This document shows positions 10,887 to 50,845 of a stretch of 64,000 nucleotides of DNA, in pieces. Position numbers and translations under genes: made by a program. Where the stretch lies: contig CAMYIG010000001.1 of NCBI GenBank assembly GCA_947258425.1, forward strand, positions 866 through 64,865. Direction: 5' to 3'. How positions within the stretch are numbered: position 1 is the stretch's first letter; the number at the start of each line of letters is the position of its first letter. The notes below the pieces were generated by a model that was not told where the DNA came from, did not search any database, and saw only the letters and a program-made list of their open reading frames with translations. The DNA comes from an uncultured Gammaproteobacteria bacterium. GTDB taxonomy: Bacteria; Pseudomonadota; Gammaproteobacteria; SZUA-140.

Positions 10887-11537
10887 ATGATTAAGGCGCT
10901 TTTTCCCTCACAAGTTGTCACCGTCACGGCAACGCCTGCCATGTGGGATGGCAAACTCTACCCCGAAGAGGCCGCTTTCATCCAGAAAGCGGTCATTAAA
11001 CGGAGACGCGAATTCACTGCTGGTAGACTATGTGCAAAAGCGGCGTTAAAAGCATTGGGGGTCACCGGCTTTCCAGTGCTGTCAGGGGGAGAGCGTGAAC
11101 CACTCTGGCCACCCGGCATCACCGGTAGCATCTCCCATTGCGATGACTATTGCGGAGTCGCACTGGCGCGTCAAGCAACGCTCACAAGCATTGGGCTAGA
11201 CATTGAAACCATTAGACCGTTAGACGACGACCTCGAAGCGATGATCTGCACACCGCAGGAAATAACACGCGCTAACCTATCTCCACCACCCTCAGGCAGC
11301 AATTGGCAAAAATTTATATTCAGTGCCAAAGAGTCTGTCTATAAATCACTGTTTCCAGTCACGCGAATTTACCTGGATTTTCAAGACCTCGACATAACCT
11401 TCGACAGTGACAGGTTGCAATTTTCAGCCACTCTGCTCACCCAGCTTCCAACAGAATATAACCTGCCAGACACCCTGACTGGCCACTTCAGGTACAACGA
11501 AAGTCACATCTTTACCGGAATTTCACTATCCCAATAA
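10887..11537 (+). CDS. 4'-phosphopantetheinyl transferase (Sfp/EntD type)
   Basis: EFTAGRLCAKAA, GSISHCDDY, GLDIETI and FSAKESVYK motifs of EntD/Sfp PPTases. It is adjacent to the NRPS genes. Confidence 0.85.
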   Translation: MIKALFPSQVVTVTATPAMWDGKLYPEEAAFIQKAVIKRRREFTAGRLCAKAALKALGVTGFPVLSGGEREPLWPPGITGSISHCDDYCGVALARQATLTSIGLDIETIRPLDDDLEAMICTPQEITRANLSPPPSGSNWQKFIFSAKESVYKSLFPVTRIYLDFQDLDITFDSDRLQFSATLLTQLPTEYNLPDTLTGHFRYNESHIFTGISLSQ

Positions 11538-11539
11538 AC

Positions 11540-12142
11540 CTAATATTTACCCAGAATAAGCCGCGCCTCACCCAGTAACATTGAGGGGTCATCCGCTGAT
11601 ACCGCTTTATAGACAGCCATTACATCCACATAATAAGTATTCCCAATCCCCCCTGAGCATGGCGGCAAATAACCGCCTACATCACCGCGATCGCTTCGGT
11701 GAAGTGCCTCAACATAAACGCCTTCCGGCAGGGCAGTGGTCTCAGCCGGAACAGAAGGGAACACAATGGAAGTCGTATCATTCGCCAGCGACATTCCTAT
11801 AACGCCATGGCCACCATTCAGCATCGGCTCGTAAGTTAAATCCCCAAATGCGAGCAGCACAGCATTTGCCTGTAATGGAATGTCAGAAATTAAGAGTGAA
11901 GGACTAGCCCCGCTGCCACCAAAATTGCGGCACTGCTGACCGTCTGGCACCGAGACCCCATCCCATTCTGAATCTGTGAAAGCGACCGCCAGTTGTGCGA
12001 CCTGTTCAGCTGGCGGGTAGGCACTCAATGGCAACTCAGGTTTGGCATCACGTTTAACGTAGAAAATAATGCCGACAAGCAGCCCTATAAAAATGATCGT
12101 GGACAGCAGGTATATCAGTTTATATGACTTATTAATATGCAT
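11540..12142 (-). CDS. Hypothetical membrane-anchored protein (N-terminal TM, periplasmic domain)
   Basis: 200-aa ORF with an N-terminal hydrophobic helix. I found no recognisable motif. It converges on the PPTase gene with a 2-nt gap. Confidence 0.4.
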   Translation of the reverse strand: MHINKSYKLIYLLSTIIFIGLLVGIIFYVKRDAKPELPLSAYPPAEQVAQLAVAFTDSEWDGVSVPDGQQCRNFGGSGASPSLLISDIPLQANAVLLAFGDLTYEPMLNGGHGVIGMSLANDTTSIVFPSVPAETTALPEGVYVEALHRSDRGDVGGYLPPCSGGIGNTYYVDVMAVYKAVSADDPSMLLGEARLILGKY

Positions 12143-12169: not shown

Positions 12170-13009
12170 TTAGTCTCTATTTAATTCGCGCGCATAAGCT
12201 TGCGCCATCCAGCCACTAATAGTCTCAATTAACTTTTCTTTATCTTTTCTCAGGATATAGGTGTGGTCTGATTCCGGAAAATAATTAACCTGTAGCTGGT
12301 CATTAAAATTCACGGCGCTGAACATATCCTTAAATTGTCCGGCATAATTATAGTCCTCATGGCCGCCACTGTAGACATACAACAGGTTTACTTTGCGCTC
12401 AACCAACTCGCGCAACTCTGCCTCGGTCTGTTGCTTTGGGGGTAATACCCAGAAGTAATCATCCTGACCTGGTCCATCGTCGACACCATCCCCTGAGGGT
12501 GAAATTAGACGTTTAATTCGGTTAAACCATCCACTCAACGAAAACAGACGGGCGCCATAGCGGCGCATCAGAAATGCAGGGGTACGATATGCGTAGCCGT
12601 CAAGAAAAATGGCACCGACCACTCGAGGGTCAATCACAGCCCCCTTATGCGCATTGGCAGCGCCGGTACATAACCCAAACAGGATGAACTTTTTGACGCC
12701 GTATTTACTCGTAAAGAAATCCATTGCAGCCTGAATATCACCAATGATCTGTTCTTCATAAGCACGCGTATCTTTATGCTTCTGGCTATCACCAATCCCA
12801 GATAGATCGAACCGAAAGGATCGCACACCCTGCACTGCTAAACGACGGGCTAATTCAACATGTAACCTAAAGGGGCCGACTCGATGGAGTAAGCCTGCAT
12901 TGAGCATAATAACGGCAGGCAACGTATCGTTAGCGACGGCCTCATCCACTTCGGTCGCAATGCCAACGAGGTCTTTATCCTGCCCAAAAGTAAATACGCG
13001 CTCCATCAC
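12170..13009 (-). CDS. Alpha/beta hydrolase-fold protein with a Cys nucleophile (candidate XrtA-associated hydrolase 1/2 type; possible acyl/peptidyl transferase)
   Basis: FRFDLSGIGDS loop; nucleophile elbow FILFGLCTGA (GxCxG, Cys where Ser is usual); C-terminal ESDHTY His. Its 4-nt overlap with the upstream gene indicates coupling. Confidence 0.7.
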   Translation of the reverse strand: MMERVFTFGQDKDLVGIATEVDEAVANDTLPAVIMLNAGLLHRVGPFRLHVELARRLAVQGVRSFRFDLSGIGDSQKHKDTRAYEEQIIGDIQAAMDFFTSKYGVKKFILFGLCTGAANAHKGAVIDPRVVGAIFLDGYAYRTPAFLMRRYGARLFSLSGWFNRIKRLISPSGDGVDDGPGQDDYFWVLPPKQQTEAELRELVERKVNLLYVYSGGHEDYNYAGQFKDMFSAVNFNDQLQVNYFPESDHTYILRKDKEKLIETISGWMAQAYARELNRD

Positions 13010-13788
13010 TTAGCACCCTCCGAAAGCATCATCACAATATCCTGCAATAATGTACTGAGTAGTAGTGCTGATTCGAGTTCTGATAACGCATCCCAATTGC
13101 CAGCGTCATCAATCACGCGGTATTCGACATCGGCACTCTGTAAACAATCGTAAAGCGCTTGATACTCGTCTTTAGCATCAGAACCTACTATAAATACCCG
13201 CTTTGCTTTCGCTAAAAAATCTTTTTTCAGATCTAATGCTTCAATCTCAGAACACATTTCCTCAGAAAATGAAAAACCCAACAGTTCATTTTCGCCTTCG
13301 CCCTGCCGAGGTACGCTAAAACGATCAGGGTCAGCCAACATCTGCTGATGCATAGACTTTTGTGACGCGATGTAGTCTCGTCCACTGACCACGGGATCCC
13401 AGAGCACGAGCTCTTCAATATTCAAAGACTCTATTGAGGACGCAATCACAGCCCCCAGGCGCAACCCCACTAATGACACTCGCGTATTGCCCGACAGGCT
13501 CTTTAACTCTTCCACCGCCATCGAGACATCTTCGCAGCTTTGTGTCAGACGCCACTCTTCTGACGAGCCAGATGAATCACCCGTTCCATAGTAATCAAAT
13601 CGAAGCACATGAAAACCGGCCTTCGCCAGCAGGTCGGCCAGGCGATTAAACATTTTAAATGACCGCATGTATTCCTGGCCGAATGGATAGCAAAGCACAA
13701 CACTCGTATCTCGTAAGTCACGAGATCTTGGCGGGTGATAGATGCCAAACAGCTGCTTATTGGAAGCGCCAAAAAAGAATGGATTCAT
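13006..13788 (-). CDS. Alpha/beta hydrolase-fold protein, apparently nucleophile-less (pseudo-hydrolase?)
   Basis: LRFDYYGTGDSSG loop; the expected nucleophile elbow reads SLVGLRLGAV, with Arg in the Ser position; no obvious C-terminal catalytic His. ATGA overlap with the downstream hydrolase gene. Confidence 0.65.
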   Translation of the reverse strand: MNPFFFGASNKQLFGIYHPPRSRDLRDTSVVLCYPFGQEYMRSFKMFNRLADLLAKAGFHVLRFDYYGTGDSSGSSEEWRLTQSCEDVSMAVEELKSLSGNTRVSLVGLRLGAVIASSIESLNIEELVLWDPVVSGRDYIASQKSMHQQMLADPDRFSVPRQGEGENELLGFSFSEEMCSEIEALDLKKDFLAKAKRVFIVGSDAKDEYQALYDCLQSADVEYRVIDDAGNWDALSELESALLLSTLLQDIVMMLSEGAK

Positions 13789-13929: not shown

Positions 13930-16900
13930 CTATTTATTGAGCAACCTATTTTTAATTTTATTAAAAAAACCGGGAGATGCCGCAGCTTTTCGCTCAACGT
14001 TCGCTGACGAATCGACCGATCGTTGTTGTTGCCCCCCTGTGTCCTGTATATCAGGCTTACTGTCCACATCAGGAAGCGAATGCGTTGCCGCAATGGCTCC
14101 CAGCGACTCCATCAATAAAACCCTTGGTGAAATCACAACCGCGGTCTCTTTCCGAATGCGTTCAATCACCTTCATCGACAACAATGAGTGCCCACCCAGA
14201 TCAAAAAAATTATCGTGCACACTCACTCGTTCAATACCCAGTGCTTCACACCACACGGTAGCAAGGTATTTTTCTGTCCCTGTTTCAGGGGAGACATACT
14301 CATCATTTTCATAACTATCACCAAAGGGCGCTGGTAAACGTTTCCGATCTAATTTACCGTTCGGTGTCACCGGAAAACCGTCCATTTCAACGATGTGCTG
14401 AGGCACCATATATTCGGGTAACAGGGCACGCAAGTGCGTCCTTATTTCTGTCACTGTGGCGCCTTCGCCTCGCTTATAAATAAGATAGGCCACCAGGCGA
14501 TGATCACCAGGACGATTTTCCCAGACGTTCACTACAGCTCGCTCAATGGCATCATGTTCGCTGAGCGCAGACTCAATCTCACCCAGCTCTATTCTAAAGC
14601 CTCGCACCTTTACCTGATTATCAATACGTCGCATGTACTCAACATTACCATCATCGTGATAGAACGCGAGGTCACCTGTGCGATAGAGTCGACTATTTTC
14701 ATCAAATGGATTTGGAACAAAACGCTCTGCCGTCAATTCTGGGCGATTCAGATAATCGCGCGCAAGGCCAGCGCCACCAATATAAATCTCACCCGGGACA
14801 CCAACAGGCACAGGAAGGAGATGCTCATCAAGCAGATAAATCTGCGTGTTTTCGATCGGTCGACCGATCAATACTGTTGCCTCATCCGCATCACGTTTCA
14901 CTTGATAACGCATCGACCATACTGTCGTTTCTGTCGGGCCATAGAGATTCCATAACTCATCGCATTTTTCAACAAGTTGGCTTGCCAGTTCACGCGGCAT
15001 TGCTTCACCACCGCATAATACCTTCAGGCCTGATGTGCCCTGCCAATCTGATTCCAGTAGTAAACGCCAGGTAATCGGGGTTGCCTGCATAACAGTGATA
15101 TTTTCACTGGCGATAAGCGCCAGTAGACGGGTGCCATCAGAAGCCGCATCACGACTTGCGATGACCGTTGTAGCACCGGTCGTCAGTGGCAAATAGAGTT
15201 CAAGTACTGCAATATCAAAAGAGATAGTGGTCACAGCAAGCAGACGATCAACTTCTGTCAAACCTGGCGCACGCCGCATCGCACAAAGAAAGTTGACCAC
15301 GGCACGGTGCGGCAGCGTCACTCCCTTGGGCTTTCCGGTTGAACCGGATGTATAAATCACGTAAGCAAGATCATCAGATTGACCTTGCTTTAGCGGGTTT
15401 CGATCATCTTCTGCAGCAATCTTCGACCAGTCACTATCGATAAAGACGGTGCGCCCCGCATAACCCGTCAGACGTTCTTTTAACGCCGCCTGAATCACCA
15501 CTAACGGGGCCTGACTATCGCTCAACATATATGCCAGACGTTCTGTTGGATACGCAGGATCAAGCGGCACGTAAGCGCCCCCTGCTTTCAAAATGCCCAA
15601 CAACCCCACCATCATATCCAGTGAGCGCTCAACACATATGCCGATTAGTTGGCCGGGCTCGACACCTGCTTTAATTAAATAATGCGCTAGCTGGTTTGCT
15701 CGCTTATTTAGTTCGGCATAACTTAAATGCTTATCCTCAAAAACGCATGCGGATTTATCGGGAAAACGTTCAACTTGCGCCTCGAAGAGCTCATGCAGCT
15801 TGCTTTCAGCAGGAAACACTACGTTTGTGTTGTTCCACTCATTAATAATAAGTGACCTCTGCTCATCATCAAGTAACGACAGTGTTGCCAATTTTGCATC
15901 AGGTTGCTCAACAACCCGCATGAGCAGCACCTCAAACAGTTTAACCAAACGTTCAATGGTGTGTGCCTCGAATATATCAGCATTATATGCTAGTGCACCT
16001 GAAATTCCATCCGCGCTATCAGACAACATTAAATCAAGGTCAAAATGAGCAGTACCTCTTTCAAATTGATATTCACTCACTTCCACGCCAGACAAAGGAA
16101 AGTTATCGCACAAGGTTTCATTATGAAGCATAAACATCACCTGAAACATTGAGGTATGATTCAATGCTCGATGATGAGGAATCTTCTCCAGAATACTTTC
16201 GAACGGAAGATCCTGATGCGAAAAACAATCGACAGTAGACTCAGCAACATGCTCGACAATATCTCTAAACGTTGAGTCTGATGAAAACTCTGTACGCATC
16301 ACCAGATTATTAGAAAAATCCCCGAACATACTATCTAACTCTGGTCGGCTGCGGACCGTCGGTGACATACCCGTTAAAATATCTTCCTGGTTAGTATAGC
16401 GATACAGCAGACACTGGAATGCAGATAACAGCGACATAAATAAAGTCGAACCTAACGTTCCGCTTAATATTTTAAGTTGCTGGGAAAGCGTCTTCGGCAA
16501 TAAAAACCGATGGGTCCTACCCTTAAATGACATCACTCTTGGCCGCGGATGATCAGTCGGTAGATCAAGCACCGTGTTCGCATCCTGTAGATAGGCTTTC
16601 CAGTACTCCAGCTGGTTATTCACCTCATTAGACGCCAGCCAGTACTTTTCCCATAATGCAAAGTCACGGTACTGCGCAATGAAATTATCACCAGCCCCAT
16701 CGCCTACAGGGTTAGAGCCATCCGTTTTATGCGCGTTATAAGTAGTACTTATCTCGTTAACAAGTAACCGTACAGAAAGACCATCCATTGCGAAATGATT
16801 CGTTGTCATGATGAACACATGCTCATCTTCCGCCAACTGAATAACCAACACCCGTAAGTTAATATCATTGGTAAGATCAAACGGCGTACTAATTTCAGCA

Positions 16901-17325
16901 TTCACCGTTTCGAGCAGTTGACGTTCTTGCGCCTCAGAGGAGATAGCCTTCAAATCATCAACGACCATGCTAAACAGCGTCGATGGCAACAACTTCTGAT
17001 AAAGTTCATCCTCGCCCTCTAAACAGGCAGTTCGTAACACTTCATGACGTTGTACTACCTGCTGAAGACTTTTCTCGAGAATTGTAAGATCTAACTCACC
17101 CTTGAGTCGCACTATAAAAGATTCATTATAAGCAGAGCTTGCAGGATCCATCTGATAGATAAACCAGAAACGTCGTTGCGCTGATGACAAAGGCACCATT
17201 ACATCTTCAGCAACACGTGGCAGCGGTAATTGTTTCAATCCAATCTCGATGTCATCCAGCATTACGTCAAATAATTCGAGCTGATCTGAAGAGAGCGCAT
17301 CCAGCGCTTGATATACATCCTTCAT
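13930..17325 (-). CDS. NRPS module C-A-T with predicted Gly specificity; no TE domain
   Basis: C-domain core TNHFAMDGLS (HHxxxDG variant). A-domain cores LSYAELN.., YVIYTSGSTGKPKGV, NLYGPTETT, YRTGDL, GRIDNQVKVRGFRIELGEIE, NGKLDRK. Stachelhaus positions read by eye against GrsA give D-I-L-Q-L-G-L-V-W-K, close to the Gly code DILQLGLIWK. PCP FFDLGGHSL. A ~60-aa Ser/Gln-rich tail follows, with no thioesterase. ATGA overlap with the upstream NRPS gene. Confidence 0.9.
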   Translation of the reverse strand: MKDVYQALDALSSDQLELFDVMLDDIEIGLKQLPLPRVAEDVMVPLSSAQRRFWFIYQMDPASSAYNESFIVRLKGELDLTILEKSLQQVVQRHEVLRTACLEGEDELYQKLLPSTLFSMVVDDLKAISSEAQERQLLETVNAEISTPFDLTNDINLRVLVIQLAEDEHVFIMTTNHFAMDGLSVRLLVNEISTTYNAHKTDGSNPVGDGAGDNFIAQYRDFALWEKYWLASNEVNNQLEYWKAYLQDANTVLDLPTDHPRPRVMSFKGRTHRFLLPKTLSQQLKILSGTLGSTLFMSLLSAFQCLLYRYTNQEDILTGMSPTVRSRPELDSMFGDFSNNLVMRTEFSSDSTFRDIVEHVAESTVDCFSHQDLPFESILEKIPHHRALNHTSMFQVMFMLHNETLCDNFPLSGVEVSEYQFERGTAHFDLDLMLSDSADGISGALAYNADIFEAHTIERLVKLFEVLLMRVVEQPDAKLATLSLLDDEQRSLIINEWNNTNVVFPAESKLHELFEAQVERFPDKSACVFEDKHLSYAELNKRANQLAHYLIKAGVEPGQLIGICVERSLDMMVGLLGILKAGGAYVPLDPAYPTERLAYMLSDSQAPLVVIQAALKERLTGYAGRTVFIDSDWSKIAAEDDRNPLKQGQSDDLAYVIYTSGSTGKPKGVTLPHRAVVNFLCAMRRAPGLTEVDRLLAVTTISFDIAVLELYLPLTTGATTVIASRDAASDGTRLLALIASENITVMQATPITWRLLLESDWQGTSGLKVLCGGEAMPRELASQLVEKCDELWNLYGPTETTVWSMRYQVKRDADEATVLIGRPIENTQIYLLDEHLLPVPVGVPGEIYIGGAGLARDYLNRPELTAERFVPNPFDENSRLYRTGDLAFYHDDGNVEYMRRIDNQVKVRGFRIELGEIESALSEHDAIERAVVNVWENRPGDHRLVAYLIYKRGEGATVTEIRTHLRALLPEYMVPQHIVEMDGFPVTPNGKLDRKRLPAPFGDSYENDEYVSPETGTEKYLATVWCEALGIERVSVHDNFFDLGGHSLLSMKVIERIRKETAVVISPRVLLMESLGAIAATHSLPDVDSKPDIQDTGGQQQRSVDSSANVERKAAASPGFFNKIKNRLLNK

Positions 17326-20300
17326 TTCACGACTCCTTTTTGCTCAACTAAACTGCGCGCGCTCAGTTGGTCACTCACTTCCCCTTTCGACAACTGTTTA
17401 ATCCGTTCAATCAGCCCTATCACACGCGAGTTAACATCCTCTTTAATCGCTACATTATTTTCACCATTCCGATATATTGCGCCACCCAATAGTGAGTGCA
17501 CAAAATAATGCCGCTCTTCAACATCAAACAACGCTCTAACCTTGTCAAAGTTTGCACCACCAATCTGACAAACAGCCAAATCGTGCTCACGCGCAGATTC
17601 ATCAATAAGGTGTGCGATGATCCCTGTTTCGAGTTTAGCCAGATAAGTAGAATACTTACCATAAGATGGCGCAACGGCACCAAGATCAGTGACAAAAAAT
17701 AGTGAAAATGCAGCTTCATCATAGATAGGAGTATTAACATACGGGACATGAATCGCGCGACTGATCTGCGCATCCTTTGTTAACGTGACCAAACGATGTT
17801 CAATGGGATGATAATAATATGTGCCCGCAGGAATGCCTTCGATTCTTCCTGGTTTAACATGCAGATAAACCTGCGTAGCGTAAAGCCCACCAGGGGAGGA
17901 ATAAAGATACTTTGGTTTACCATCCACCTCTATCTGATAAAAACATGACAGAAAATCACTAAACTGATCAAAAGGGATACACTCCAGTGAAAAACGTCGA
18001 TGACTAAAACGGTTCGCATATTTTTTCCTGAACGCTTCATCATCCACTGGTTTTTTGAGTTGTAAAAACTCTTTGCCTTCATCATTTTTTCGTATACCGG
18101 GCTGCGAATTCTTAAATGCCTCTCGCTCCGCGGGGTCGCGTAACTGCTGATATGAGGCAATCAGTGCTTTGACGCCCGAAAGTTCGCCTTCATCCTCGAC
18201 CGTTTTTTCCTTGTTGTCCTGCGCGCTATTGCTACGACAATAATCAGCAATGGCATTGACACTCTGAAGACGAAATATCTCATCCATACGCGGCCGAAAA
18301 CCAAACATCTTCTCCAGTTGATTACCAATCTTCACCATATCAAGCGAATTGGCACCCATTGATATCAGGTTCGCTTCATTCGACAGGTTATCCATTGATA
18401 ACAGCTCACAGATCATCGCATTCAACTGCGTAACAATCTCAGAATTATTAGCGGAGAGTGCGCTCTCTGAAGGACTGTCCTGCGGCTCCGGAAGTGATTT
18501 TCGATCCACTTTTCCGTTACGTGTCAGTGGCAGCTCATCCAGCGTTATAAACATGGCAGGCACCATGTAGTCTGGAAGTCTGCTAGCGAGATGTTCACGC
18601 AATTTATTTTCATCGATGGCATATCCCGGCGCCTTAACGAGATAAGCCAGCAGTCGCTGTTTTCCCGTCTGCGCAACCGTTACAACAGCGCTTATCACTG
18701 ACTCATGCTGTTGCAGTGCAGCCTCTACTTCACCACACTCAATCCGCTGCCCCTGAATCTTTATCTGAAAATCGGTACGGCCGACAAATTGAATATTGCC
18801 ATCGGGGAGGTAACGTCCAAGATCGCCAGTACGGTAAATCCGTTCACCAGTCTCCGGATGTTTTACAAATTTTTCAGCGGTTTTCTGTTCGTCCTGCCAG
18901 TACCCCATCGCAACGCCGATGCCGGCGACACACATCTCACCAGCCACCCAGTCAGGACACGGCGCAAGCGCCTCATCAAGAATATAATAGCGAGTATTCG
19001 CGATCGGCTTTCCGTATGGGATGCTTTTCCACGTGGGGTCAATCTGCTCAACGGGATACCAGATATTCCAGAGTGTCGTCTCCGTCGGCCCACCCACACT
19101 CACCAGTTGCGCACCTGTTTCTTTTTTAAGCCGCGCTGGCAACCCCAGTGGAATCCAGTCCCCCCCCAGAAATGCAGTCCGTAGACTATCGGGCGCGGTA
19201 CCGGGGTGACTCTCTACGTAGCACAGCAGCATATCCATCATTGCCGGTACAGAATTCCAGATGGTGGGCCTAAACTTCTGCATCATATCCACCCAATGAG
19301 CCGGGTCTCGACGCTCTTCTGGATCGGGCATCACGATTGAGCCGCCAGCACCCAGCATGCCAAACATGTCATAAATCGACATGTCATGATGCAGTGCAGT
19401 GACCGCTAATACACGGTCATCCGAACCCACATTAAAACAGCGGTTGGTTTCAACGATGGCATTCACCACGCCTCGATGGTTTAACATCACCCCTTTCGGT
19501 GTTCCGGTCGAACCAGAGGTATAGATGACATAAGCAAGATCATCTGGGGTCTGCAAATGAGCTAATGGCCCATCATCATATTCAGCGATATCATCGCTAT
19601 CCACACATAGCAGGGTTAAACCTTCAGGCCAGTTAATTTTATCAACCAACCACGACTGCGTTAATACTAGTTCAACGCCACTATTTGCTAACAACTTGCA
19701 TAAGCGCTCGCTCGGCTGCAAGGCATCCATTGGCGCATAGGCAGCACCCGACTGCAGCACACCATAGGCCGCAACCGCTTGCTCCCATCCTTTATCCATT
19801 ACAATCGCGACCAGCTTATTCGGCATGGCGTTCAGTTCACGTAAGCGTCTTCCCCAGCGGTTTGCTAACCCCAATAACTCTCTATAATTTAATGTTCGTT
19901 GAGTGGTAATCACGGCATCACTATCACCGGCTGTTTCAGCATGCGCAATAAACAGGTCTTGCAGCAGCCCTTGTGGCACATCGCGCTGATTATCATTGAC
20001 CTGTGCTCGACGTATTTTCTGCGACTCAGGCAGTAATCTCGTCGTAATCTCAAGCCAGCTCGCCTGCCATGCAGATTGATCAGCGGCTAGCCACTCCAGT
20101 AGCTGAATATAGGCATGTCCCATATCCTCCTGCAGCCCATCCGGGAAAAGCTCGCTGACATAGTCCCAGTCAACACCTAAGACACCCTTATATTCATAAA
20201 TATGATTATCAAGCCAGACCTGCGGCGTCTGATTAACGGCAAAAGTGACATTACCAATCAATCTTGCCGCATTAACGGTATACGCACTCGTGCCATCGGG

Positions 20301-21503
20301 GGCCTGTGGTGCACCGGTAAACACCACCGGTTTCAGACTCTCAGAACCACTCTTACCCTGCGTTGAAAGCTCTCTCAAAATATCTACGCCAGTAAAATAG
20401 TTATGATCCAGGTCATTCCATAACTGCTGCTGCACCACTTTCGCCTCATCGAGAAAATGGGCCTTGTCACCAATATCGATATCCAGCAGGCTAAATGAAG
20501 CGGCCTCACCGACAATGTTGTTGACCTGAGGGTCGAGTGGAAAACGATTAAACTGAGGGATATTCAGACAGAAATTTCGACTTTGACTCCACATCGCAAT
20601 CACATAAGCGTATGCCGTTAGCAAAACCACAATGGGGGTGACACCACTTTGATTGCAGTGCTGTTTAATACTGTTCCAGCTAGTTGCGCCCAGTTTAAGG
20701 CCTAGCCGGGTAAAGCGTCCCTCGTCAACTTCCTGAGGTGTTTTGGCAAGCGGCAGATCTGGTGCTGCAGACATGCGATCAATGCGTTGCTTCCAGTAAT
20801 CGGCATCTGCTTTAAATTTACTTGATTTTTTTAACGCGCGCTCAGCAAATACATAATCTCTAAATGTCAGATTAAGCGGGGGCAATGGCTCATCAGGACG
20901 ATGATAAAGCTGCGCCCATTCGGTGAAAATCACCGTCAAACTCCAGCCATCTACAATCAGCGCATCGAAACCGATATGCAGCCGTAACAGTCCATCTCTC
21001 AATTGTGCCGCAGTAATGGTAAACAGTGGCCACTGGTCTGAAGGTAGCACCTGATGTGAAATATTGTATCGCAGCTCCGCCAACTTCTTCTCGCGCGCAC
21101 CTTCATCGTGCTGCGTAAGGTCGACATAATCTATTTTATAGTCGGGTGTCTCCTCTAAAATCCGCTGATCACCATCGCGACTGATCACAACCCGCATCAT
21201 TTCATGCCGCACTATAAGCTTACAAAACGCCTCATTTAAACGCGCATAGTCAAGTTCATCTTCAATTTCATGATAAGCATAGCCCGCGACTTTACCCATC
21301 TCAAATGCGCCACTGCGTCCAATCCAGTACGCCTGCTGAAGTTCAGTCAACGGAAAAGGATCATAACGCTGGGCAGGGTTCGCCGTGATTTTATCAGATG
21401 CGATGTCAATCTTTTCAGCCGCCTGCTTCTGCGCAAGCTTCTTGATTAATAAAGCTCGCTTTTCAGGAGTAAGCCCTTCTAGCCGTTTTTTAAGGTCTGT
21501 CAT
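17322..21503 (-). CDS. NRPS module Cy-A-T-Ox (heterocyclisation, Cys-like adenylation, PCP, C-terminal FMN oxidase; thiazole-forming)
   Basis: Cy1 FPLTELQQAYWIGR; Cy2 RHEMMRVV..DGDQ; the Cy signature DALIVDGWS (DxxxxD) replaces HHxxxDG. A-domain cores YVIYTSGSTGTPKGV, GGPTETT, YRTGDL, GRTDFQIKIQGQRIECGEVE, NGKVDRK. Specificity residues ~D-M-Y-N-F-G-V-L-W-K resemble the Cys code DLYNLSLIWK. PCP LISMGANSL. The C-terminal ~285 aa carry YLYSSPGGLYATQVY, a McbC/SagB-like nitroreductase-fold oxidase signature, arranged as in BlmIII. The basic N-terminal helix KKRLEGLTPEKRALLIKKLAQK is a possible docking element. Confidence 0.9.
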   Translation of the reverse strand: MTDLKKRLEGLTPEKRALLIKKLAQKQAAEKIDIASDKITANPAQRYDPFPLTELQQAYWIGRSGAFEMGKVAGYAYHEIEDELDYARLNEAFCKLIVRHEMMRVVISRDGDQRILEETPDYKIDYVDLTQHDEGAREKKLAELRYNISHQVLPSDQWPLFTITAAQLRDGLLRLHIGFDALIVDGWSLTVIFTEWAQLYHRPDEPLPPLNLTFRDYVFAERALKKSSKFKADADYWKQRIDRMSAAPDLPLAKTPQEVDEGRFTRLGLKLGATSWNSIKQHCNQSGVTPIVVLLTAYAYVIAMWSQSRNFCLNIPQFNRFPLDPQVNNIVGEAASFSLLDIDIGDKAHFLDEAKVVQQQLWNDLDHNYFTGVDILRELSTQGKSGSESLKPVVFTGAPQAPDGTSAYTVNAARLIGNVTFAVNQTPQVWLDNHIYEYKGVLGVDWDYVSELFPDGLQEDMGHAYIQLLEWLAADQSAWQASWLEITTRLLPESQKIRRAQVNDNQRDVPQGLLQDLFIAHAETAGDSDAVITTQRTLNYRELLGLANRWGRRLRELNAMPNKLVAIVMDKGWEQAVAAYGVLQSGAAYAPMDALQPSERLCKLLANSGVELVLTQSWLVDKINWPEGLTLLCVDSDDIAEYDDGPLAHLQTPDDLAYVIYTSGSTGTPKGVMLNHRGVVNAIVETNRCFNVGSDDRVLAVTALHHDMSIYDMFGMLGAGGSIVMPDPEERRDPAHWVDMMQKFRPTIWNSVPAMMDMLLCYVESHPGTAPDSLRTAFLGGDWIPLGLPARLKKETGAQLVSVGGPTETTLWNIWYPVEQIDPTWKSIPYGKPIANTRYYILDEALAPCPDWVAGEMCVAGIGVAMGYWQDEQKTAEKFVKHPETGERIYRTGDLGRYLPDGNIQFVGRTDFQIKIQGQRIECGEVEAALQQHESVISAVVTVAQTGKQRLLAYLVKAPGYAIDENKLREHLASRLPDYMVPAMFITLDELPLTRNGKVDRKSLPEPQDSPSESALSANNSEIVTQLNAMICELLSMDNLSNEANLISMGANSLDMVKIGNQLEKMFGFRPRMDEIFRLQSVNAIADYCRSNSAQDNKEKTVEDEGELSGVKALIASYQQLRDPAEREAFKNSQPGIRKNDEGKEFLQLKKPVDDEAFRKKYANRFSHRRFSLECIPFDQFSDFLSCFYQIEVDGKPKYLYSSPGGLYATQVYLHVKPGRIEGIPAGTYYYHPIEHRLVTLTKDAQISRAIHVPYVNTPIYDEAAFSLFFVTDLGAVAPSYGKYSTYLAKLETGIIAHLIDESAREHDLAVCQIGGANFDKVRALFDVEERHYFVHSLLGGAIYRNGENNVAIKEDVNSRVIGLIERIKQLSKGEVSDQLSARSLVEQKGVVK

Positions 21504-21641: not shown

Positions 21642-24600
21642 TCATTCGTCTTCAAGCTCACCCAATAGCGCAAGCAACTCATCTTCGTTTACATTCTCCA
21701 GCATCATCTGTTCAATCTTGCTGGAAAAATCGACCAATCGAGGCGAAAGAAAGATCGCTTGAAGTGGAATATCAATCGCAAAGTCCTGTCGGATGCGTGT
21801 AATCAACTGCACCGCGATCAACGAATGCCCGCCAATCTCGAAGAAATTATCGTACAACCCCACCTGCTTGAGCCCCAGTAACGCCTGTAAAATAGTAGCG
21901 ACCTGAATCTCAACTTCGCTAGCAGGTGCGACATATTCTGCCTGAGTATCAATATTCCCTTGCTCCGGCACTGGGAGTTTTTTACGATTAATTTTTCCAT
22001 TCGGTAATAATGGCAATCCCGCTAGCACGACGTAATTTACGGGCACCATAAATTCAGGTAAATGTTGTCCCAGATAGTTGCGTAGCGCATTGATATTGAT
22101 GTCAGTGCCTGTGTCTGGCACCACATACGCAACAAGCTTTTTATTCCCGGGCTCATCTTCTCGCAGTAGCACAAGCGCGTCATTCACTTCGGTATTCTCT
22201 AACAGAAGCTTCTCGATCTCACCCAGCTCAATCCGATAGCCATGTAGCTTGACCTGATGGTCGATGCGCCCCATGAACTCCAGCCGCCCATCACGACCCA
22301 TGCAGACCAGGTCGCCCGTTCGATACATACGGTCATTTAAATCACCACTCACACTGTTTTTTACAAACTTTTCAGCAGTGAGCTCGGGGCGATTCAGATA
22401 ACCCCGTACCACGCCGTCACCGGCAATTACCAGTTCACCCGGCACACCCAGCGGCTGAAGTTGCATATTGTTATCCAGCACATAGGTCTGTGTATTCGCA
22501 ATCGGGGAGCCCAATGGAATATCTGCGTCTGCCTCATGTAAATGATACGTGGTTGACCAGATCGTCGTCTCAGTCGGCCCGTACATATTCGTCACTTGAC
22601 CTTTCACCAATGAACGCAGCTTTACTGCCAACTGACTCGAAAAGGCTTCACCGCCCACCATCATATGAGACAAGCATCCCAGTGCGTGATGCATCTGCTG
22701 GTCTGATGCCAGCATATTGGCCATCGTTGGCGTACATTGAAAATGCGTGACGTTGTGTCGCTCGATAAGTGCAGCGATGGAATAATCCTTATCCGCCCCA
22801 TCAGACTGCGGCGGGTTAGCCGCCTCCTTCACCTGGCTTAGATAATGGAGGTGGGCCAGTACTTTTTCGGTCTCGATGCCAAAATCGATCAGACAACCGA
22901 TCTCATCCACCCCTATTTCCTTGAGTTGATCTGCACGTTCAACGCATCGTTCAACATTCCCAAAGAGCCCGCTGTGGTTATAATAGCGATCAAACGCGAA
23001 GGCCAGCAGGCTATCTCTATCCTCATCAGAAATATTATTAAAAAACTCATCCATGGTCTGCTCTGTACCCTCGGATACCTGCTTCCACGCCGGGCTATGC
23101 CACGCGGCCGCTTTCACCAGAGAAACTGCACTTTCCAGATAGTCCATCATCGGCTGCTGTGCAACATCACGCACCTGCGCCTCATCATCGCCGATGAAGG
23201 TGTGTAGCATTAATGTGACTTGCCCATCACCTGCATGACCGGCCTCTTTCCAGGCGCTACGATAGAGCCGAATATTCTCTGCCACCTTTTCAATATCCTG
23301 TCCGAGCAGGTGCGTCAGCACATGTGCACCAATTGATCCAGCCTGTCGGAAGGTGTCAGGATTCACCGCAACCGTTACCCAAATTGGTAACTTTTCCTGA
23401 ATAGGTCTAGGGTAGGTGCGGACTTCAACATCGCCTTTCGGCCCCGCAAACGTGACAGCCTCACCTTTCCATAATTGCTGGATAGTCTCAACGGAATCAA
23501 ACATGATCTCTTTTGCGCGCGCATGATTCTCAGGCTTGATCACAAAATCATTCGGCTGCCAGCCGGGCGCAATCGAAAGCCCCGCACGGCCATTGGAAAG
23601 GTTATCCACCACCGACCACTCTTCTGCGATGCGAATAGGGCTATGCAGTGGCACCACACAACTGCCCGCACGAATACCGATGTTTTGCGTAGTGGCCGCC
23701 AGTGCGGCACCGATGACTGAGGGGTTAGGGTACAGTCCGCCAAAGGCACCGAAATGTCGCTCAGGTGTCCATAGCGCTTCGAAGCCATTTTTGTCGGCGT
23801 ATTTAGCGCTTTCGAGCAGTAACTTATACTTATCTGCCTCGCGAGATGCCTCGTCTTTTACAAAATTCCAGTAAAAAAGACTAAAGGCAATCGGCTGAGC
23901 GGGGTATCGTGTCGCCACTTCCCCAGCCTTCAGGTCATCACCGGCGTAGAGCACCAGTTTAAACCCTCGACAGAGACTCCAGAAAATCTCAAGCACGGAG
24001 ATATCAAACGATATACTGGTCACAGCCAACCACACACCCGGGGAATCATGCGCAATGCGCTCATCCATGCCTGCGAAGAAATTCACCACATTACGGTGTT
24101 CGACCATCACCCCTTTGGGACGCCCGGTCGAGCCCGAAGTATATATCACATAAGCCAGACTCGATGACGCGCACGGGATTTCAAGATTATTATCGCTCTC
24201 GACATCGATTCGACTTCGCTCAAGATCAACCTGCAACAACTTTTCACCGGGCAGATAATTTGCGTAATCAGACTGGGTAACTACCAACGCCAGCTCTGCG
24301 TCATCGGCCATATAAACCAAACGATCTTTGGGATAAGTGGGATCCAGTGGCACATAGGCCGCGCCTGTTTTCCACGTTGCCAATAGCGCGATCACCATAT
24401 CAAAGGAACGATCCAACATCACACCGACCAGATCATCTACACCCACGCCATGTTTTACCAGATAGTGCGCCAGCTGATTTGCGCGAGCATTCAACTCATG
24501 ATAACTGAGGCTGTCATTGTGAAATGCCAGCGCGGATGTATCCGGTGTAGACACTACTTGTTGTTCAAACAGCTGAAATACACATCGATTTTCAGGGTAT

Positions 24601-27600
24601 GCAGTGGCAGTACCCGTGGCTATTTTTAATATGGCCTGTTGCTCTTCTCTCGGTAAAATCGGCACACTCGCTACCGGCGTATTGAGATCTTCAACCATGA
24701 CCTCCAGCACTTTTAGATAGTGCGCCAGCATACTTTCCATACGCGCTTGCGAGAAAAGGTCGGTGCAATATTCAAGTACCGCCTCCAGTCCAGAGGGACG
24801 CTCCCACATATAAAGGGTCATGTCATATTTTGAAGTACCACTATGAGTGTCCAGCTGTATCGTCCGCATGCCGGGAAGATTCATCACCGATTCATGCTCA
24901 AGCGCATCAAAAATAAACATCACCTGAAAAACCGGTGCATAACGTAAATCACGCTCTGGATTGAGCGCCTCAACCAATTTATCGAATGGCAATCCCTGAT
25001 GCGCAAAATCTGCAATGGTCGTCTTACGCACGCGGGCGATCAACTCTCTCAGTGAAACATCGCCTGATAGATCACAACATAAAGGGAGTGAGTTCATAAA
25101 CAGTCCGAGCATCGCTTCGGTCTCGAGCGGCTCGCGGTTCGCGACCGCAGTACCGACCACAAAATTCTCCTGTGATGAGTAGCGGTGGAGCAGTAATTGA
25201 TAGGCCGCCAACAGCAGCATAAATAGACTGGAACGCTCCTGTTGCGCAATGATATTAAGTCGCTGATGTAGCGCAGACGGTATCTTCAGGGTCACAGAAC
25301 TGCCATTAAATTGCTGCACGGACGAGCGTGGGAAATCAGTTGGTAACTCCAGTACCGGCGGCATCTGCTTTAACCGAGGCAGCCAGTAATCAATCTCCGC
25401 CTGAAGACGATCATCGGCCATATAAGTACTTTGCCAGGCAGTATAGTCAGCGTAATCGGCTGAGAGCTGAGGTAATTGCGGTTCAACGCCACTCACCATC
25501 GCACCATATACCTGCTCGAGCTCGCTTGCCAGCAGACGCACTGACCAGCCGTCAAACACGATGTGATGGATCACAAACGTCATCACATATTTTGATGGTG
25601 CCAGTTTGATAATATTGCAGCGCCACAACGGTCCCTGTTCGATATCGAACAGAGTGTGCGCCTCATTTGTGATCAACTTATCTATTTCCGCCTGCGGATC
25701 TGACGCCTGACTCAAGTCATGCATGAATACCGGCAAGTCGACCTGACCCGCTATCACCTGTGTCGGCGCGCCCCCTTTCACTGAAAACGTGGTACGCATT
25801 GAAGCGTGGCGCTTAACGATTACCGCCATCGCTTGTTTAAAGAGCTCGGGATCAAAATCACCATCGATCTTAAATGCATAAGGGATGTTATAGAGTGCGC
25901 CCACCTGCTCCATTTGCTCAAAAAACCAGATGCGACTCTGCATAAATGAAAGCGGGATATCGCCAGCATGTTCTTTTTTGTGTAGCACTGGTTGTGTCAC
26001 GGCCACATCCGTTACTGCCGATGACGAGATATATTTCGCAAGTTCAGCAATGGTGGGGGAGTTAAAGAGTGCAGTAATAGAAAGCTGCACACCGAACTCA
26101 CGCCGCAACCGGGCGACCATCTGCGCGGCCAGCAGGGAGTGGCCACCGGCATGAAAAAAATTAGCGTTCACACCTACTCTCTCTACACCCAAAAGGGCCT
26201 GCCATATCGCTGCGATCCTGGTTTCTGTATCGCCTGTCGGTGCAACATAATCACGATCTTCGAACAGGTCCGCGTACCGAGGATGGGGTAGCGCCTTTTT
26301 ATCCACCTTGCCATTCGCCGTTAAAGGAATCTCCGCAACAAAGACAAAATGCTGTGGAACCATATGGACAGGCAGACCATTGGCGACATAATCACGTAGT
26401 GCATCGACCTGTAGGCTGTCAGACTTTTTAACCACATACGCCACCAGGCGCTGGTCACCCACACCCAATTCAATGACATTCAATGCAACCTGCTTAACCT
26501 CGGGGTACGCAATGAGAAGCGATTCGATCTCACCAAGTTCTATTCTAAAGCCGCGCAATTGCACCTGGTCGTCAATTCGCCCTAGGTATTCCAGTTCATT
26601 ATTGGAGAGGCGGCGCGCTAAATCGCCAGTACGATACAGTCGGATGACAGTGCCGTTTTCTAACGTGTGGTTAATAAAACGTTCTGCGGTCAAGTCAGGC
26701 CGATTCAAATAGCCCTTCGATAGACCATCGCCGGCAACATACAGCTCCCCTTTCTGCCCATCGATAACAGGCTTCATCGCGTCATCAAAAAGATAGAGTT
26801 TCAGGTCTGGAATGGCCCGGCCAATCAGACTCCCCTTCGGGTGATCCACATCATCACGAGAAATGGGACGATACGTCACGTGCACGGTTGTTTCGGTGAT
26901 ACCGTACATATTAATCAATTGCGGGGCGTTGTCTCCGTGACGGGAAATCCACGGTTTTAAAGCGGCCAGGTTGAGCGCTTCACCGCCGAAGATCACATAA
27001 CGTAACGCCAGTGTATCTGCTGTGTGTCGCTCTTCATCCACCAGCTGTAGCTGCTGGAATGCTGAGGGGGTTTGATTCAGGACGGTGACCCCTTGCGATA
27101 TCAGCAGGGTATAAAACAATTCCGGGGTGCGTGCTGTTTCCGCTGACACAATCACCAGGCTGCCACCGTAGCTCAGCGCGCCCCAAATCTCCCACACAGA
27201 AAAATCAAAGGCATATGAGTGAAACAGGGTCCAGACATCATCCACACCAAAATCAAACCAGTGGTTAGTGGAATCAAAAAGCCGGGATACATTTTTATGA
27301 GTTACCTGCACTCCTTTGGGTGCCCCGGTAGAGCCCGAGGTATAGATGACATAGGCAAGGTGCTCGTCAGTCACCGCTACAGCAGGATTTTCTACTGTCG
27401 ATGAACCCTTCTCCATCGCATCAATCAATAAAATTTTAGCCGAACAGGCGGGTAAATTTTCGACCAGCGTCTGCTGCGTTACCAGTACAGCAGGTTTGGC
27501 ATCATTCAGGGTGTAGGCAATACGGGAAGCGGGGTAATTCGGGTCAACCGGCACATAGGCAGCGCCTGCCTTTAAAATACCCAAAATACCGATCACTGTA

Positions 27601-27882: not shown

Positions 27883-28617
27883 TTAGTGCGGTGAGTTACT
27901 AGACCGCCAGAATGTCACGGCCTGTGACATCCCCTCAAATACATGAAATCCCGGATATTGTTCAACATTCCATGTATCATATTTTTCTAGCCAACCGACC
28001 GATGCAAGTACTTTATCGTGCACTGGTGTGACATACACCAGTCGAAAAGCACGAGGATTCTTATCCAGCGAGCAGCGAATCGCCGCAAGTACTTCTAACA
28101 CTGTAATTTCCCCAAAGGGGTTGAACATAAACACGACGGTTACATCGTCAAAATCATACGCCTGAGCCAACCCTTCACGAAGCTCGATGTCAGCCTTCCG
28201 CCCGCGCAATTTCTGAGCATTTAAACGCGCAATGGGTAAAAAACTGCTGTTATATTCAAGCCCAATCACGCGCCCAACGTCTGTTCGCGCAGCGACGCTG
28301 AGTGTTCGCCCTTTACCACATCCCAGATCGACAAAGACATCTCGAGCATCTAAAGCGAGATGTTTCATGATGTCATGCAACAACAGGTACGGCGTTGCTT
28401 CATAACGAAAGCCGTCCTGTGGCATACCGATATCAACGATTGCCTCGGTATTGATCCCTAAATAGCGCTCCCAAAACTTGTCATGGAGTCTTATTTCATA
28501 GGGTGCAGCCCCAATTGCCTCACCCTTTCTAAAAATATAACGCGCCAGAAGAACATCTTTGTTTTTGATAATGAATCTGGGTAACTTCACAAAAAGAAGT
28601 TTCAGCTGGTTTAACAA
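27883..28617 (-). CDS. Class I SAM-dependent methyltransferase
   Basis: Motif I VDLGCGKGRTL and a Rossmann-type fold order. 244 aa. Immediately upstream of the NRPS operon. Confidence 0.7.
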   Translation of the reverse strand: MLNQLKLLFVKLPRFIIKNKDVLLARYIFRKGEAIGAAPYEIRLHDKFWERYLGINTEAIVDIGMPQDGFRYEATPYLLLHDIMKHLALDARDVFVDLGCGKGRTLSVAARTDVGRVIGLEYNSSFLPIARLNAQKLRGRKADIELREGLAQAYDFDDVTVVFMFNPFGEITVLEVLAAIRCSLDKNPRAFRLVYVTPVHDKVLASVGWLEKYDTWNVEQYPGFHVFEGMSQAVTFWRSSNSPH

Positions 28618-36070: not shown

Positions 36071-36073
36071 GGG

Positions 36074-37243: not shown

Positions 37244-37244
37244 C

Positions 37245-40493: not shown

Positions 40494-40535
40494 AAAATTT
40501 CAGACTTAATGCACCATCGCTCACTGTTCATCCCT

Positions 40536-41177
40536 TCACCCTTTCAATAATTCCGAGACTGTCACTGACTGCAGCCCACTCGCCGCGAGCTGATCTAATA
40601 ATGATTTGAGTGCCAATGGGGTATATGGTGTCTTATCGTGCAAAAGAGCAATATCACCAGCGATTAGTGGATGTTGCTCAAAAAAATCCGTAATCTCATC
40701 AGCAGAGGTTACTTTATAGTCCTCTGGATCCACATTCCATAATATGGCTTTCTGCCTTTTAGCTAAAATATACCGAAGTAATCCCAATGTAATCACCCCT
40801 TTAGGCGGCCGAAAAAGTGACCGGCTCTCAGGCGCCTGGTCGTCAGACCTAAGTAGCTCCCACACATCATCAAGTTCATCGCTTATCGCATGGTAGCCCA
40901 ATAAGCTGAACTCGGGGTGCGTCATAGAATGGTTACCTAATTCATGGCCTCGTGCTTCAATCATTTTCGTTATTTCAGGATATTTCTTAACCTGCTCTCC
41001 CACTACGAAAAATGTTGCCTTCATACCCGCCTCATCCAGCACATCCAGCACCTGTTCTGTATAGGGGTGGAATGGACCGTCATCAAAGGTCAGCGCGACC
41101 TTTTCAGCACCTGTTGTTGAACGGCAAACAAGAAAATGAGACAAGATAACTTCTTTTACCCATTTCTTAAGGTTCAT
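40536..41177 (-). CDS. Polysaccharide deacetylase (NodB/CE4 family)
   Basis: VALTFDDGPF (motif 1), HELGNHSMTHP (motif 2). Probable start MNLKKW at 41177; the longer ORF reaching 41249 would overlap the upstream GT by 83 nt. Confidence 0.85.
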   Translation of the reverse strand: MNLKKWVKEVILSHFLVCRSTTGAEKVALTFDDGPFHPYTEQVLDVLDEAGMKATFFVVGEQVKKYPEITKMIEARGHELGNHSMTHPEFSLLGYHAISDELDDVWELLRSDDQAPESRSLFRPPKGVITLGLLRYILAKRQKAILWNVDPEDYKVTSADEITDFFEQHPLIAGDIALLHDKTPYTPLALKSLLDQLAASGLQSVTVSELLKG

Positions 41178-42387: not shown

Positions 42388-42390
42388 ACA

Positions 42391-44792: not shown

Positions 44793-44829
44793 TGAATAGT
44801 ACCCCGCGCATCCATTCCAACCATCACCA

Positions 44830-46293: not shown

Positions 46294-46294
46294 A

Positions 46295-48130: not shown

Positions 48131-48176
48131 ACCCTATCCTATAAACAATTATTTACCAGAAAGCATTAGCTTTAAA

Positions 48177-50842: not shown

Positions 50843-50845
50843 TTC

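Follow-up and report, generated by a model that had tools for sequence, protein, structure and literature searches.

The question raised by this locus is how a nonribosomal peptide synthetase (NRPS) that has no thioesterase gives up its product and what part two adjoining alpha/beta-hydrolase genes may play in that step. The window, meaning the whole stretch of 64,000 nucleotides analyzed here from contig CAMYIG010000001.1 of an uncultured gammaproteobacterium (lineage SZUA-140), encodes an NRPS that ends in a thiolation (T) domain, with no thioesterase (TE), reductase (R), or terminal condensation (C) domain. Gene B, which encodes a protein similar to exosortase A-associated hydrolase 2 (hydr2), begins 141 nt past the NRPS end and is followed by gene A, which encodes a hydr1-like protein. 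Both open reading frames (ORFs) are present on the minus strand, in that order, at the coordinates of the initial annotation (Table 1). That annotation lacked the decisive context, namely, that the pair stands behind a thioesterase-less NRPS and that the Arg-containing protein is, in other genomes, often fused to the last carrier domain. The best explanation of the whole, to which we assign a probability of about 0.55, is a two-part off-loading of the chain in which protein B is a noncatalytic adaptor in the thioesterase position and protein A is a Cys-His transacylase. That B and A form the chain-release device of the adjacent NRPS is the safer part of this proposal and is probably correct.

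Protein A contains the motifs FRFDLSGIGDS, GLCTG (residues 112 to 116), and DHTY (including His249), and protein B contains LRFDYYGTGDSSG and GLRLG (residues 108 to 112); the D..G.G.S loop previously ascribed to both proteins can thus be read from the ORFs in each case. In phmmer searches against PDB sequences, GLSMGG of the esterase 9pjb aligns on GLCTG in A and on GLRLG in B, and DHTF of the same esterase aligns on DHTY in A. AlphaFold2 monomer models, with pLDDT values of 89.7 (A) and 91.0 (B), have an alpha/beta-hydrolase fold with the elbow after the fifth core strand, and both proteins match Abhydrolase_1 and Hydrolase_4 in Pfam. The models place Cys114 and Arg110 at the strand-to-helix turn behind that strand and His249 of A in the loop past the last core strand, which is the canonical position of the catalytic His. 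Because the 9pjb alignments and the models both place them at the elbow, Cys114 and Arg110 occupy the true nucleophile positions. The Ser of the GDS motif was considered as the real nucleophile and rejected, as RFDxxGxGDS is common to ordinary esterases, in which it is noncatalytic, and the nucleophile motif of the esterase falls elsewhere, on GLCTG and GLRLG; the refuting condition named in the initial annotation therefore does not apply. Cys114 and His249 would therefore be the catalytic pair of A, and Asp137, which lies after strand 6 and is 93% conserved, is perhaps the acid. The closest solved structures are feruloyl esterases, lipases, and PET46, and the top ten structural neighbors of B include DcsB, LuxD, and GrgF, which act on carrier-bound thioesters.

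The unusual elbow residues are not peculiar to this locus. In alignments of the best 120 homologs each of A and B (40 to 60% identity) plus the query, Cys114 of A, His249 of A, and Arg110 of B are each present in 121 of 121 sequences, and B has no conserved His at the catalytic position. A profile search of 1.84 billion cluster representatives found 3,855 hydr2-like clusters (50% identity) with an E value of ≤1e-30. When the best 150 of these 3,855 representatives are aligned with B, the elbow residue is Arg in 147 of the 151 sequences, Gly in 3, Lys in 1, and never Ser or Cys; the only His residues of B conserved in this alignment (positions 18, 44, and 60) precede the elbow. Among 49 hydr2-like domains aligned from genome loci, Arg is found in all 48 in which the elbow is covered, even where the flanking Gly residues vary; the 49th is a fragment (L045) that is cut by a contig end before the elbow. 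The pattern used in the genome scan included the Cys, so that Cys conservation among those loci is biased, but the protein homolog searches are free of that bias. The Cys at the elbow of A, on which conservation, the esterase alignment, and the model agree, and the Arg at the elbow of B, with no catalytic His, had been noticed in the initial annotation as features of this locus; both prove to be family-wide. Protein B lacks the combination expected of a competent hydrolase (Ser, Cys, or Asp at the elbow and His after the last core strand). Because an invariant Arg replaces its nucleophile and it has no catalytic His, B has very probably lost catalysis, as far as can be judged from sequence.

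The genomic setting of the pair links it to carrier proteins. A scan of one genome per species, made with a pattern from the A alignment and followed by ORF and hidden Markov model annotation, yielded 47 hydr1-like genes. In 17 of these, hydr1 lies behind a protein that carries hydr2 as a fusion at the end of a C-A-T or A-T module (in which A denotes adenylation), and in 13 it lies behind a stand-alone hydr2 directly after a T-ending NRPS; in 30 of 47 cases, the Arg protein thus follows a terminal carrier domain directly or is part of the same polypeptide. Eight more are in pairs with no carrier domain directly upstream, one (L014, 5927-7720) is a hydr2-hydr1 fusion, and eight were scored as standing alone, although several of the last group are contig-end or ORF-calling artifacts. 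Further hydr2-hydr1 fusions are found in Cupriavidus metallidurans CH34, in Mycetohabitans rhizoxinica, and in the cluster representatives P0251 and P0365, and such natural fusions back the earlier description of A and B as a physically coupled pair. The Arg protein is always accompanied by an adjoining Cys-His hydrolase, frequently with translational coupling and in some cases as a fusion. The ATGA overlap given in that description was mistaken, however. On the minus strand, the junction reads 5'-GCT AAG TGA TGG AG-3', which is either a 4-nt GTGA or a 1-nt TGATG overlap, and A is 279 amino acids (aa) long from the GTG at position 13009 or 278 aa long from the ATG at position 13006 (the public gene call). 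ATGA is the most frequent form of the junction among homologous loci. Of 46 loci, 40 have a potential start codon that overlaps the hydr2 stop or adjoins it; this count is weak alone because most of the overlaps are [A/G/T]TGA, which is often expected by chance. In the loci checked (L003, L005, and L012), the overlapping start opens the hydr1 frame.

The nature of the carrier load can be read in part from the adenylation domain just before hydr2. Specificity codes were read against a GrsA reference and are indicative only; about 22 of 32 loci, representing several phyla, have the glycine code DILQLGM[VI]WK or one close to it. Ser (L024 and L025) and an Asn-like code in single-module A-T-hydr2 proteins are the exceptions. 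Recurrence of the Gly code across phyla suggests a conserved C-A(Gly)-T-hydr2 plus hydr1 cassette with a defined substrate end. The family is spread among Gamma-, Beta-, Alpha-, and Deltaproteobacteria, Bacteroidota, Acidobacteriota, Planctomycetota, and Nitrospirota. Two copies of the pair may occur in one locus, as two pairs in L044 and as one pair plus one fusion in L014, and the representative P0362 (1184 aa) consists of alternating domains (hydr1, 325-605; hydr2, 644-896; hydr1, 921-1183).

A second question is how A and B are related to the hydrolases of the exosortase A (XrtA) system, of which they had been called probable counterparts. Their best family matches are TIGR03100 (hydr1_PEP) and TIGR03101 (hydr2_PEP), respectively, so the homology stands; the orthology does not. 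Protein A scores 81.4 bits over residues 7 to 161 only, compared with a curated cutoff of 168.45, and B scores 103.9 bits over residues 3 to 143 only, compared with a cutoff of 202.75. Seven relatives score 59 to 96 bits against TIGR03100, also below the cutoff, and the CH34 fusion is intermediate (125 bits). Because these scores lie below the curated cutoffs, A and B are best classed, on sequence, as sister paralogs forming a large sister family of hydr1_PEP and hydr2_PEP and not as members of the curated equivalogs. Neither protein has a match to the thioesterase family PF00975 at an E value of ≤0.01 or to a PhaC family in the Pfam and NCBIfam scans, and A has a partial match to dienelactone hydrolase PF01738 of 19.2 bits, below the gathering threshold of 21. 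Polyhydroxyalkanoate (PHA) synthase, dienelactone hydrolase, and type II thioesterase are thus identities that the family scans do not support. As expected for hydr1_PEP, A has an XrtA/PEP-CTERM locus nearby and an adjoining, distantly related hydr2, since B lies directly upstream with a stop/start overlap. None of the canonical companions (the TIGR03098 ligase, a small acyl carrier protein [ACP], and the TIGR03099 pyridoxal phosphate [PLP] decarboxylase) was found among the window ORFs scanned; the NRPS and a 4'-phosphopantetheinyl transferase (PPTase) occupy their place. In NCBIfam, hydr1, hydr2, the ligase, the ACP, and the decarboxylase of the exosortase A system are all still typed as hypothetical equivalogs.

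Both elbow residues are nevertheless kept in one canonical lineage, in the same gene order, ACP-hydr2-hydr1. The Sphingomonas parapaucimobilis locus (L058) encodes an ACP, then a 231-aa “hypothetical” hydr2, and then a hydr1 (5134-5958) that is named hydr1_PEP by PGAP and is a genuine member of the family (TIGR03100 score of 181.1, above 168.45). These genes are divergent from those for the TIGR03098 ligase and the TIGR03099 decarboxylase, and the canonical set is thus present. Its hydr1 contains FGNCDAA, in which hmmalign puts the Cys on C114, and TDSHSY; its hydr2 contains SIRGG, in which the Arg was placed at the elbow by eye. These motifs are kept in 14 metagenomic relatives. The metagenome scan returned only close relatives (66 to 99% identity) of the Sphingomonas protein, tblastn searches of plasmids with A and B gave no PGAP-named hydr1_PEP or hydr2_PEP (L058 was reached by an XrtA search), and the plasmid collection held no second genuine hydr1_PEP; the XrtA plasmid of Vibrio alfacsensis has no hydrolase pair. 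As only Sphingomonas relatives turned up, the presence of Cys and Arg in the canonical family rests on one clade. The TIGR03098 “acyl-CoA ligase” of L058 (7736-9226) scores 254 bits on the amino-acid adenylation model (cutoff, 317.4) and retains the FDxS-motif Asp that contacts the alpha-amino group; its substrate may therefore be an amino acid and not a fatty acid.

A third context is found in Mycetohabitans (L059, 8805-16803, M. rhizoxinica pBRH01), Azospirillum (L055), and CH34 (L056). It comprises an ACP, an acyl-CoA-dehydrogenase-family (ACAD) protein, an aminoacyl-tRNA synthetase (aaRS)-like amino-acid:ACP ligase, DUF1839, a GH2 glycosidase-like protein, and a fused hydr2-hydr1 protein of 610 to 620 aa in which the Arg, Cys, and His are retained. 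The CH34 operon lies beside Wzc and GDP-mannose genes. The pair is thus accompanied by three independent carrier-loading systems: an NRPS, a ligase plus ACP, and an aaRS-like ligase plus ACP. The constant companion of the pair is a loaded carrier protein, with glycan genes as a frequent second one.

A complete XrtA/PEP-CTERM system is present in the window itself, which the initial annotation could not have known. Most of the core XrtA genes score above the curated cutoffs, which is not true of the GT4 glycosyltransferases, the deacetylases, or an O-ligase-like gene. The exopolysaccharide (EPS) locus encodes an EpsB_2 glycosyltransferase, PrsK, PrsR, PrsT, an export protein, a chain-length determinant, a tyrosine kinase, and the TIGR03016 outer-membrane protein, along with three deacetylases, GT4 glycosyltransferases, a flippase, and WecB. 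Because XrtA genes lie on both sides of it, the NRPS-hydrolase cassette is embedded in the XrtA locus, which contains no canonical ligase, ACP, decarboxylase, hydr1, or hydr2 gene. Elsewhere, about 12 of the 46 genome loci have XrtA-type EPS genes at a distance of no more than 10 kb from the pair, and such genes are also adjacent to it in Variovorax paradoxus and CH34.

These observations suggest a mechanism. In the place of a TE, B would dock on or near the terminal carrier domain and recruit A, acting as the docking or substrate-binding subunit of an A-B heterodimer, and its Arg110 could be a binding site for the phosphate of phosphopantetheine or for an anionic acceptor. Cys114 of A, activated by His249 and perhaps by Asp137, would take over the carrier-bound chain as a thioester acyl-enzyme. 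The peptide predicted from the domain order and codes is Thr-Gly(oxidised?)-thiazole-Gly, and A would then pass this glycine-ended chain on to an acceptor. Transfer to an acceptor other than water is the more tentative part of the proposal, with odds that we place below even; it is favored because of the Cys nucleophile, the embedding in an EPS locus, the futility of hydrolysis in single-module systems, and the precedents of CmaE, SyrC, and CouN7. If a guess at the acceptor is to be made, it would be an amine or hydroxyl of the XrtA/PEP-CTERM exopolysaccharide pathway, and the cassette would then replace the acyl-CoA-ligase/ACP/decarboxylase plus hydr2 plus hydr1 set of canonical XrtA loci. 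In its most specific form, the pair would be a conjugating enzyme that grafts carrier-bound acyl, aminoacyl, or peptidyl-glycyl thioesters onto a component of the exosortase pathway, which is doubtful at present; candidate targets would be a deacetylated EPS aminosugar or lipid-linked repeat unit, a polyamine, or the processed end of PEP-CTERM proteins.

Several observations weigh against this proposal. About 34 of 46 genome loci have no EPS gene within 10 kb of the pair, so that the XrtA link is frequent and not general, and no acceptor-specific gene is consistently near the pair among the genome loci. Neither A nor B has a signal peptide by inspection of its sequence; both look cytoplasmic, which limits the range of acceptors. 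In A, the acid position after strand 7 is not conserved. In five Kangiellaceae loci, hydr1 is seemingly a true orphan without hydr2 (L022, L032, L035, L053, and possibly L029 have a Cys-motif hydr1 with no hydr2-like gene or NRPS within 10 kb; any partner would be elsewhere in the genome). A Cys nucleophile is also compatible with hydrolysis. The statement in the initial annotation that Cys nucleophiles in this fold favor acyl transfer holds as a tendency and fails as a rule, as dienelactone hydrolase is a Cys-His-Asp alpha/beta-hydrolase that acts as a hydrolase. Finally, the commonest neighbor after the NRPS and hydr2 is an ACAD protein (15 loci; a PPTase is found in 9), which fits better with chemistry on a tethered glycine followed by plain hydrolysis.

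The alternative that survives best is hydrolytic release or stub clearing, in which A would be a Cys-His thioesterase that hydrolyzes the remnant on the last carrier and B would be a structural partner only. The product could be the finished peptide acid, or a glyoxylyl stub could be cleared after oxidative cleavage of the terminal glycine has given a C-terminal amide, as with MtaG and MelG. The Gly code in the terminal adenylation domain of most loci is in line with this, as are the flavin enzymes that recur with the pair, namely, the ACAD proteins and the Gly-type adenylation domains interrupted by a luciferase-like monooxygenase (MOx) in the window, L003, L011, L016, and L019. The closest solved structures are hydrolases, and dienelactone hydrolase shows that a Cys nucleophile in this fold can hydrolyze. 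However, the MOx of the window is in an internal Gly module and not in the terminal one, and the window has no ACAD gene. Hydrolysis also leaves unexplained why an invariant Arg pseudoenzyme and a change from Ser to Cys are found in every member, and in the single-module A-T-hydr2 systems (L005 and L050) and the canonical ligase/ACP system it would amount to a futile cycle on an unmodified substrate. On balance, we regard plain hydrolysis as unlikely. The ACAD genes (L005, 6110-7261; L030, L033, L034, L036, L039, L046, L048, and L049, about 4.4-5.9 kb; also L013, L017, L021, and L050) are often directly upstream of C-A(Gly)-T-hydr2, and L005 also has ETF alpha and beta genes. Such neighbors hint at oxidation of the carrier-bound glycyl unit.

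The three other explanations considered have little probability. Carrier-to-carrier shuttling, in which A would move an aminoacyl or peptidyl group between T domains in the manner of CmaE and SyrC, agrees with a Cys nucleophile in an alpha/beta-hydrolase from an NRPS cluster, for which there is precedent (PMC8748450). However, the T-domain search of the window matched only the three NRPS proteins, with no T domain or ACP standing alone; a second assembly line was not found there either, and the pair takes the last place in the line, that of a TE. Shuttling is thus very improbable. Editing, in which the pair would clear misprimed carriers like a type II thioesterase while release took place elsewhere, is brought to mind by stand-alone alpha/beta-hydrolases beside an NRPS and a PPTase, but we give it hardly any weight, as there is no PF00975 match and no other release function in the cluster, and the fusion of hydr2 to the terminal T domain within a Gly-specific cassette argues for a dedicated terminal step. 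A role unrelated to the NRPS, as an esterase or binding protein acting on exopolysaccharide (for example, on O-acyl groups), would suit the pairs of L026, L031, L038, and L041, which lie in XrtA-type EPS rows with no carrier or adenylating enzyme within 10 kb, but is most unlikely given the 30 of 47 genes directly behind or fused to a carrier domain, the three independent carrier-loading systems, and the lack of a signal peptide on either protein.

The proposed two-part release can be compared with several known systems. Like A and B, hydr1_PEP and hydr2_PEP are adjoining alpha/beta-hydrolases encoded in the order hydr2-hydr1 behind a carrier in an XrtA/PEP-CTERM locus, and in the one canonical lineage examined they likewise have Cys in hydr1 and Arg in hydr2. 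The window proteins differ in reaching only about half of the cutoff scores, over their N-terminal halves only, and in the elbow of hydr1 (G-L-C-T-G in A and G-N-C-D-A in canonical hydr1). Their locus has a four-module NRPS with MOx, heterocyclization (Cy), and oxidase (Ox) domains plus a PPTase, whereas the canonical one has the TIGR03098 ligase, the ACP, and the TIGR03099 PLP decarboxylase. The thioesterases of NRPS and polyketide synthase (PKS) systems, whether of the cis-acting type I or trans-acting like DcsB, GrgF, and LuxD, share with the pair the alpha/beta-hydrolase fold and a position after or fused to the terminal carrier. They differ in that the pair has no PF00975 match, the domain in the TE position has Arg and no His, and the catalytic residues are on a second polypeptide.

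The nucleophile of CmaE and SyrC is a Cys. Together with CouN7, they belong to an established class of alpha/beta-hydrolase-fold enzymes that load a carrier-bound acyl group on an active-site nucleophile and then move it to another carrier or to a sugar hydroxyl (PMC8748450). They act alone, without a pseudoenzyme partner, and the window has no acceptor carrier; their likeness to A is one of description. PacP, an A-T-TE0 protein, has a triad-less alpha/beta-hydrolase-type domain fused after a carrier (PMC8748450). Compared with B, again by description, this TE0 domain has no dedicated Cys partner, and no invariant Arg has been reported for it. In the MtaG and MelG terminal modules of myxothiazol and melithiazol biosynthesis, C-A(Gly, MOx)-PCP-TE (PCP, peptidyl carrier protein), a terminal amide is formed. 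A Gly-specific terminal module and a MOx within a Gly adenylation domain both occur with the pair, too, but the MOx of the window is internal, an Arg/Cys pair stands in place of the Ser thioesterase, and in many loci an ACAD protein takes the place of the MOx. Class III PHA synthase (PhaC-PhaE) and PqsC-PqsB each combine a subunit that forms a thioester on a G-x-C-x-G cysteine with a required noncatalytic subunit. Neither has detectable homology to the pair; PhaE is not an alpha/beta-hydrolase, and PqsBC has a FabH fold.

Recognized strategies of NRPS release are Ser/Cys thioesterases, reductases, terminal condensation domains, and trans-acting hydrolases, and we know of no described two-part arrangement of the kind proposed here. 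If correct, the proposal would add a widespread release mode involving two polypeptides, with a dead Arg hydrolase in the TE position and a separate Cys-His hydrolase for the chemistry. As hydr1_PEP and hydr2_PEP are already catalogued, the variant described here is the NRPS-linked Arg/Cys sister pair. A literature search found no study of hydr1_PEP/hydr2_PEP or of an Arg/Cys two-part NRPS release module. To our knowledge, the XrtA-associated ligase, ACP, decarboxylase, and hydrolase genes are still uncharacterized, and conjugation, if true, would give them a function; it would also make nonribosomal peptides covalent decorations of the cell-surface matrix and not free metabolites. The hydrolases, ACP, ligase, and decarboxylase are not mentioned by Haft 2006 (PMC1569441). 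The finding ties the module to the exosortase A system, and the NRPS versions point to the carrier load, which is usually a glycine-ended chain. With this predicted load and cultivable hosts (Desulfoluna spongiiphila AA1, L018; Desulfoluna butyratoxydans MSL71, L027; Variovorax paradoxus VAI-C, L054; Cupriavidus metallidurans CH34, L056; Mycetohabitans rhizoxinica, L059; and Sphingomonas parapaucimobilis YK209, L058), the question of what the exosortase A hydrolases do becomes directly testable.

Table 1. Positions of the hydrolase pair, the NRPS cassette, and XrtA-related features in the window
Feature	Position	Strand	Basis or remark
XrtA/PEP-CTERM-associated ATPase TIGR03015	8334..9332	-	363 > 324.5; far side of the NRPS cassette from the EPS operon
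Sfp-type 4'-phosphopantetheinyl transferase	10887..11537	+	Domain scan; convergent with the operon
200-aa protein with N-terminal membrane anchor (transmembrane helix)	11540..12142	-	27 nt downstream of A
Gene A, hydr1-like alpha/beta-hydrolase	12170..13009	-	Predicted Cys114-His249 pair; Asp137 is the candidate acid
His249 codon of A (DHTY)	12263..12265	-	Aligned to DHTF of 9pjb; loop after the last core strand
Nucleophile elbow of A, codons G112-L-C114-T-G116	12662..12676	-	Sequence; aligned to GLSMGG of 9pjb
B-stop/A-start overlap GTGA	13006..13009	-	Sequence; read as translational coupling
Gene B, hydr2-like alpha/beta-hydrolase, probable pseudoenzyme	13006..13788	-	260 aa; Arg110 at the elbow, without catalytic His
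Nucleophile elbow of B, codons G108-L-R110-L-G112	13453..13467	-	Sequence; aligned to GLSMGG of esterase 9pjb
Terminal NRPS module C-A-T, no thioesterase	13930..17325	-	Adenylation-domain code DILQLGLVWK indicates Gly
NRPS module Cy-A-T-Ox (heterocyclization plus nitroreductase-type oxidase)	17322..21503	-	Cys-like code
NRPS A-T-C-A(MOx)-T	21642..27815	-	First adenylation domain, Thr code; second, Gly code, interrupted by luciferase-like monooxygenase
Methyltransferase-domain protein, head of the NRPS gene row	27883..28617	-	Domain scan
XrtA/PEP-CTERM exopolysaccharide locus	34904..63927	-	Family scans
PEP-CTERM protein, expected exosortase substrate	54407..54970	+	Sequence motif (...VPEPATIAMMGLGLIGLGFMARRRNS)
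XrtA-EpsI fusion	57340-58929	-	233.9 > 208

Among the neighbors of the pair, an Sfp-type PPTase is found in the same arrangement at L003, L006, and L011. The 200-aa protein downstream of A has no Pfam or NCBIfam match and was found only in two metagenome-assembled genome (MAG) assemblies of the same organism. A promoter and terminator scan of positions 11300-14200 gave background-level counts, and the 141 nt that separate the NRPS from B contained no site.

Three genes lie between the NRPS and the EPS operon, all on the plus strand. The first (29255-30481) encodes a FemAB-like GNAT protein (PF13480 Acetyltransf_6, 74 bits) that falls short of the XrtA-associated FemAB family model; enzymes of the FemAB type attach amino acids, glycine among them, to amine acceptors. 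The second (30822-32942) encodes a lipoprotein-like protein with tandem-95/CshA-type adhesin repeats, and the third (33019-34614) encodes a secreted 531-aa protein with a weak N-terminal likeness to the pectate lyase PelN; neither of these two has a C-terminal PEP-CTERM signal. Within the EPS operon, a 611-aa protein (46295-48130, minus strand) has as its sole match an aminoglycoside-phosphotransferase-like kinase domain near the C terminus. Two MAGs, one of Nitrosomonas and one alphaproteobacterial, are among the unrelated taxa in which the MOx-interrupted adenylation domain lies beside the pair.

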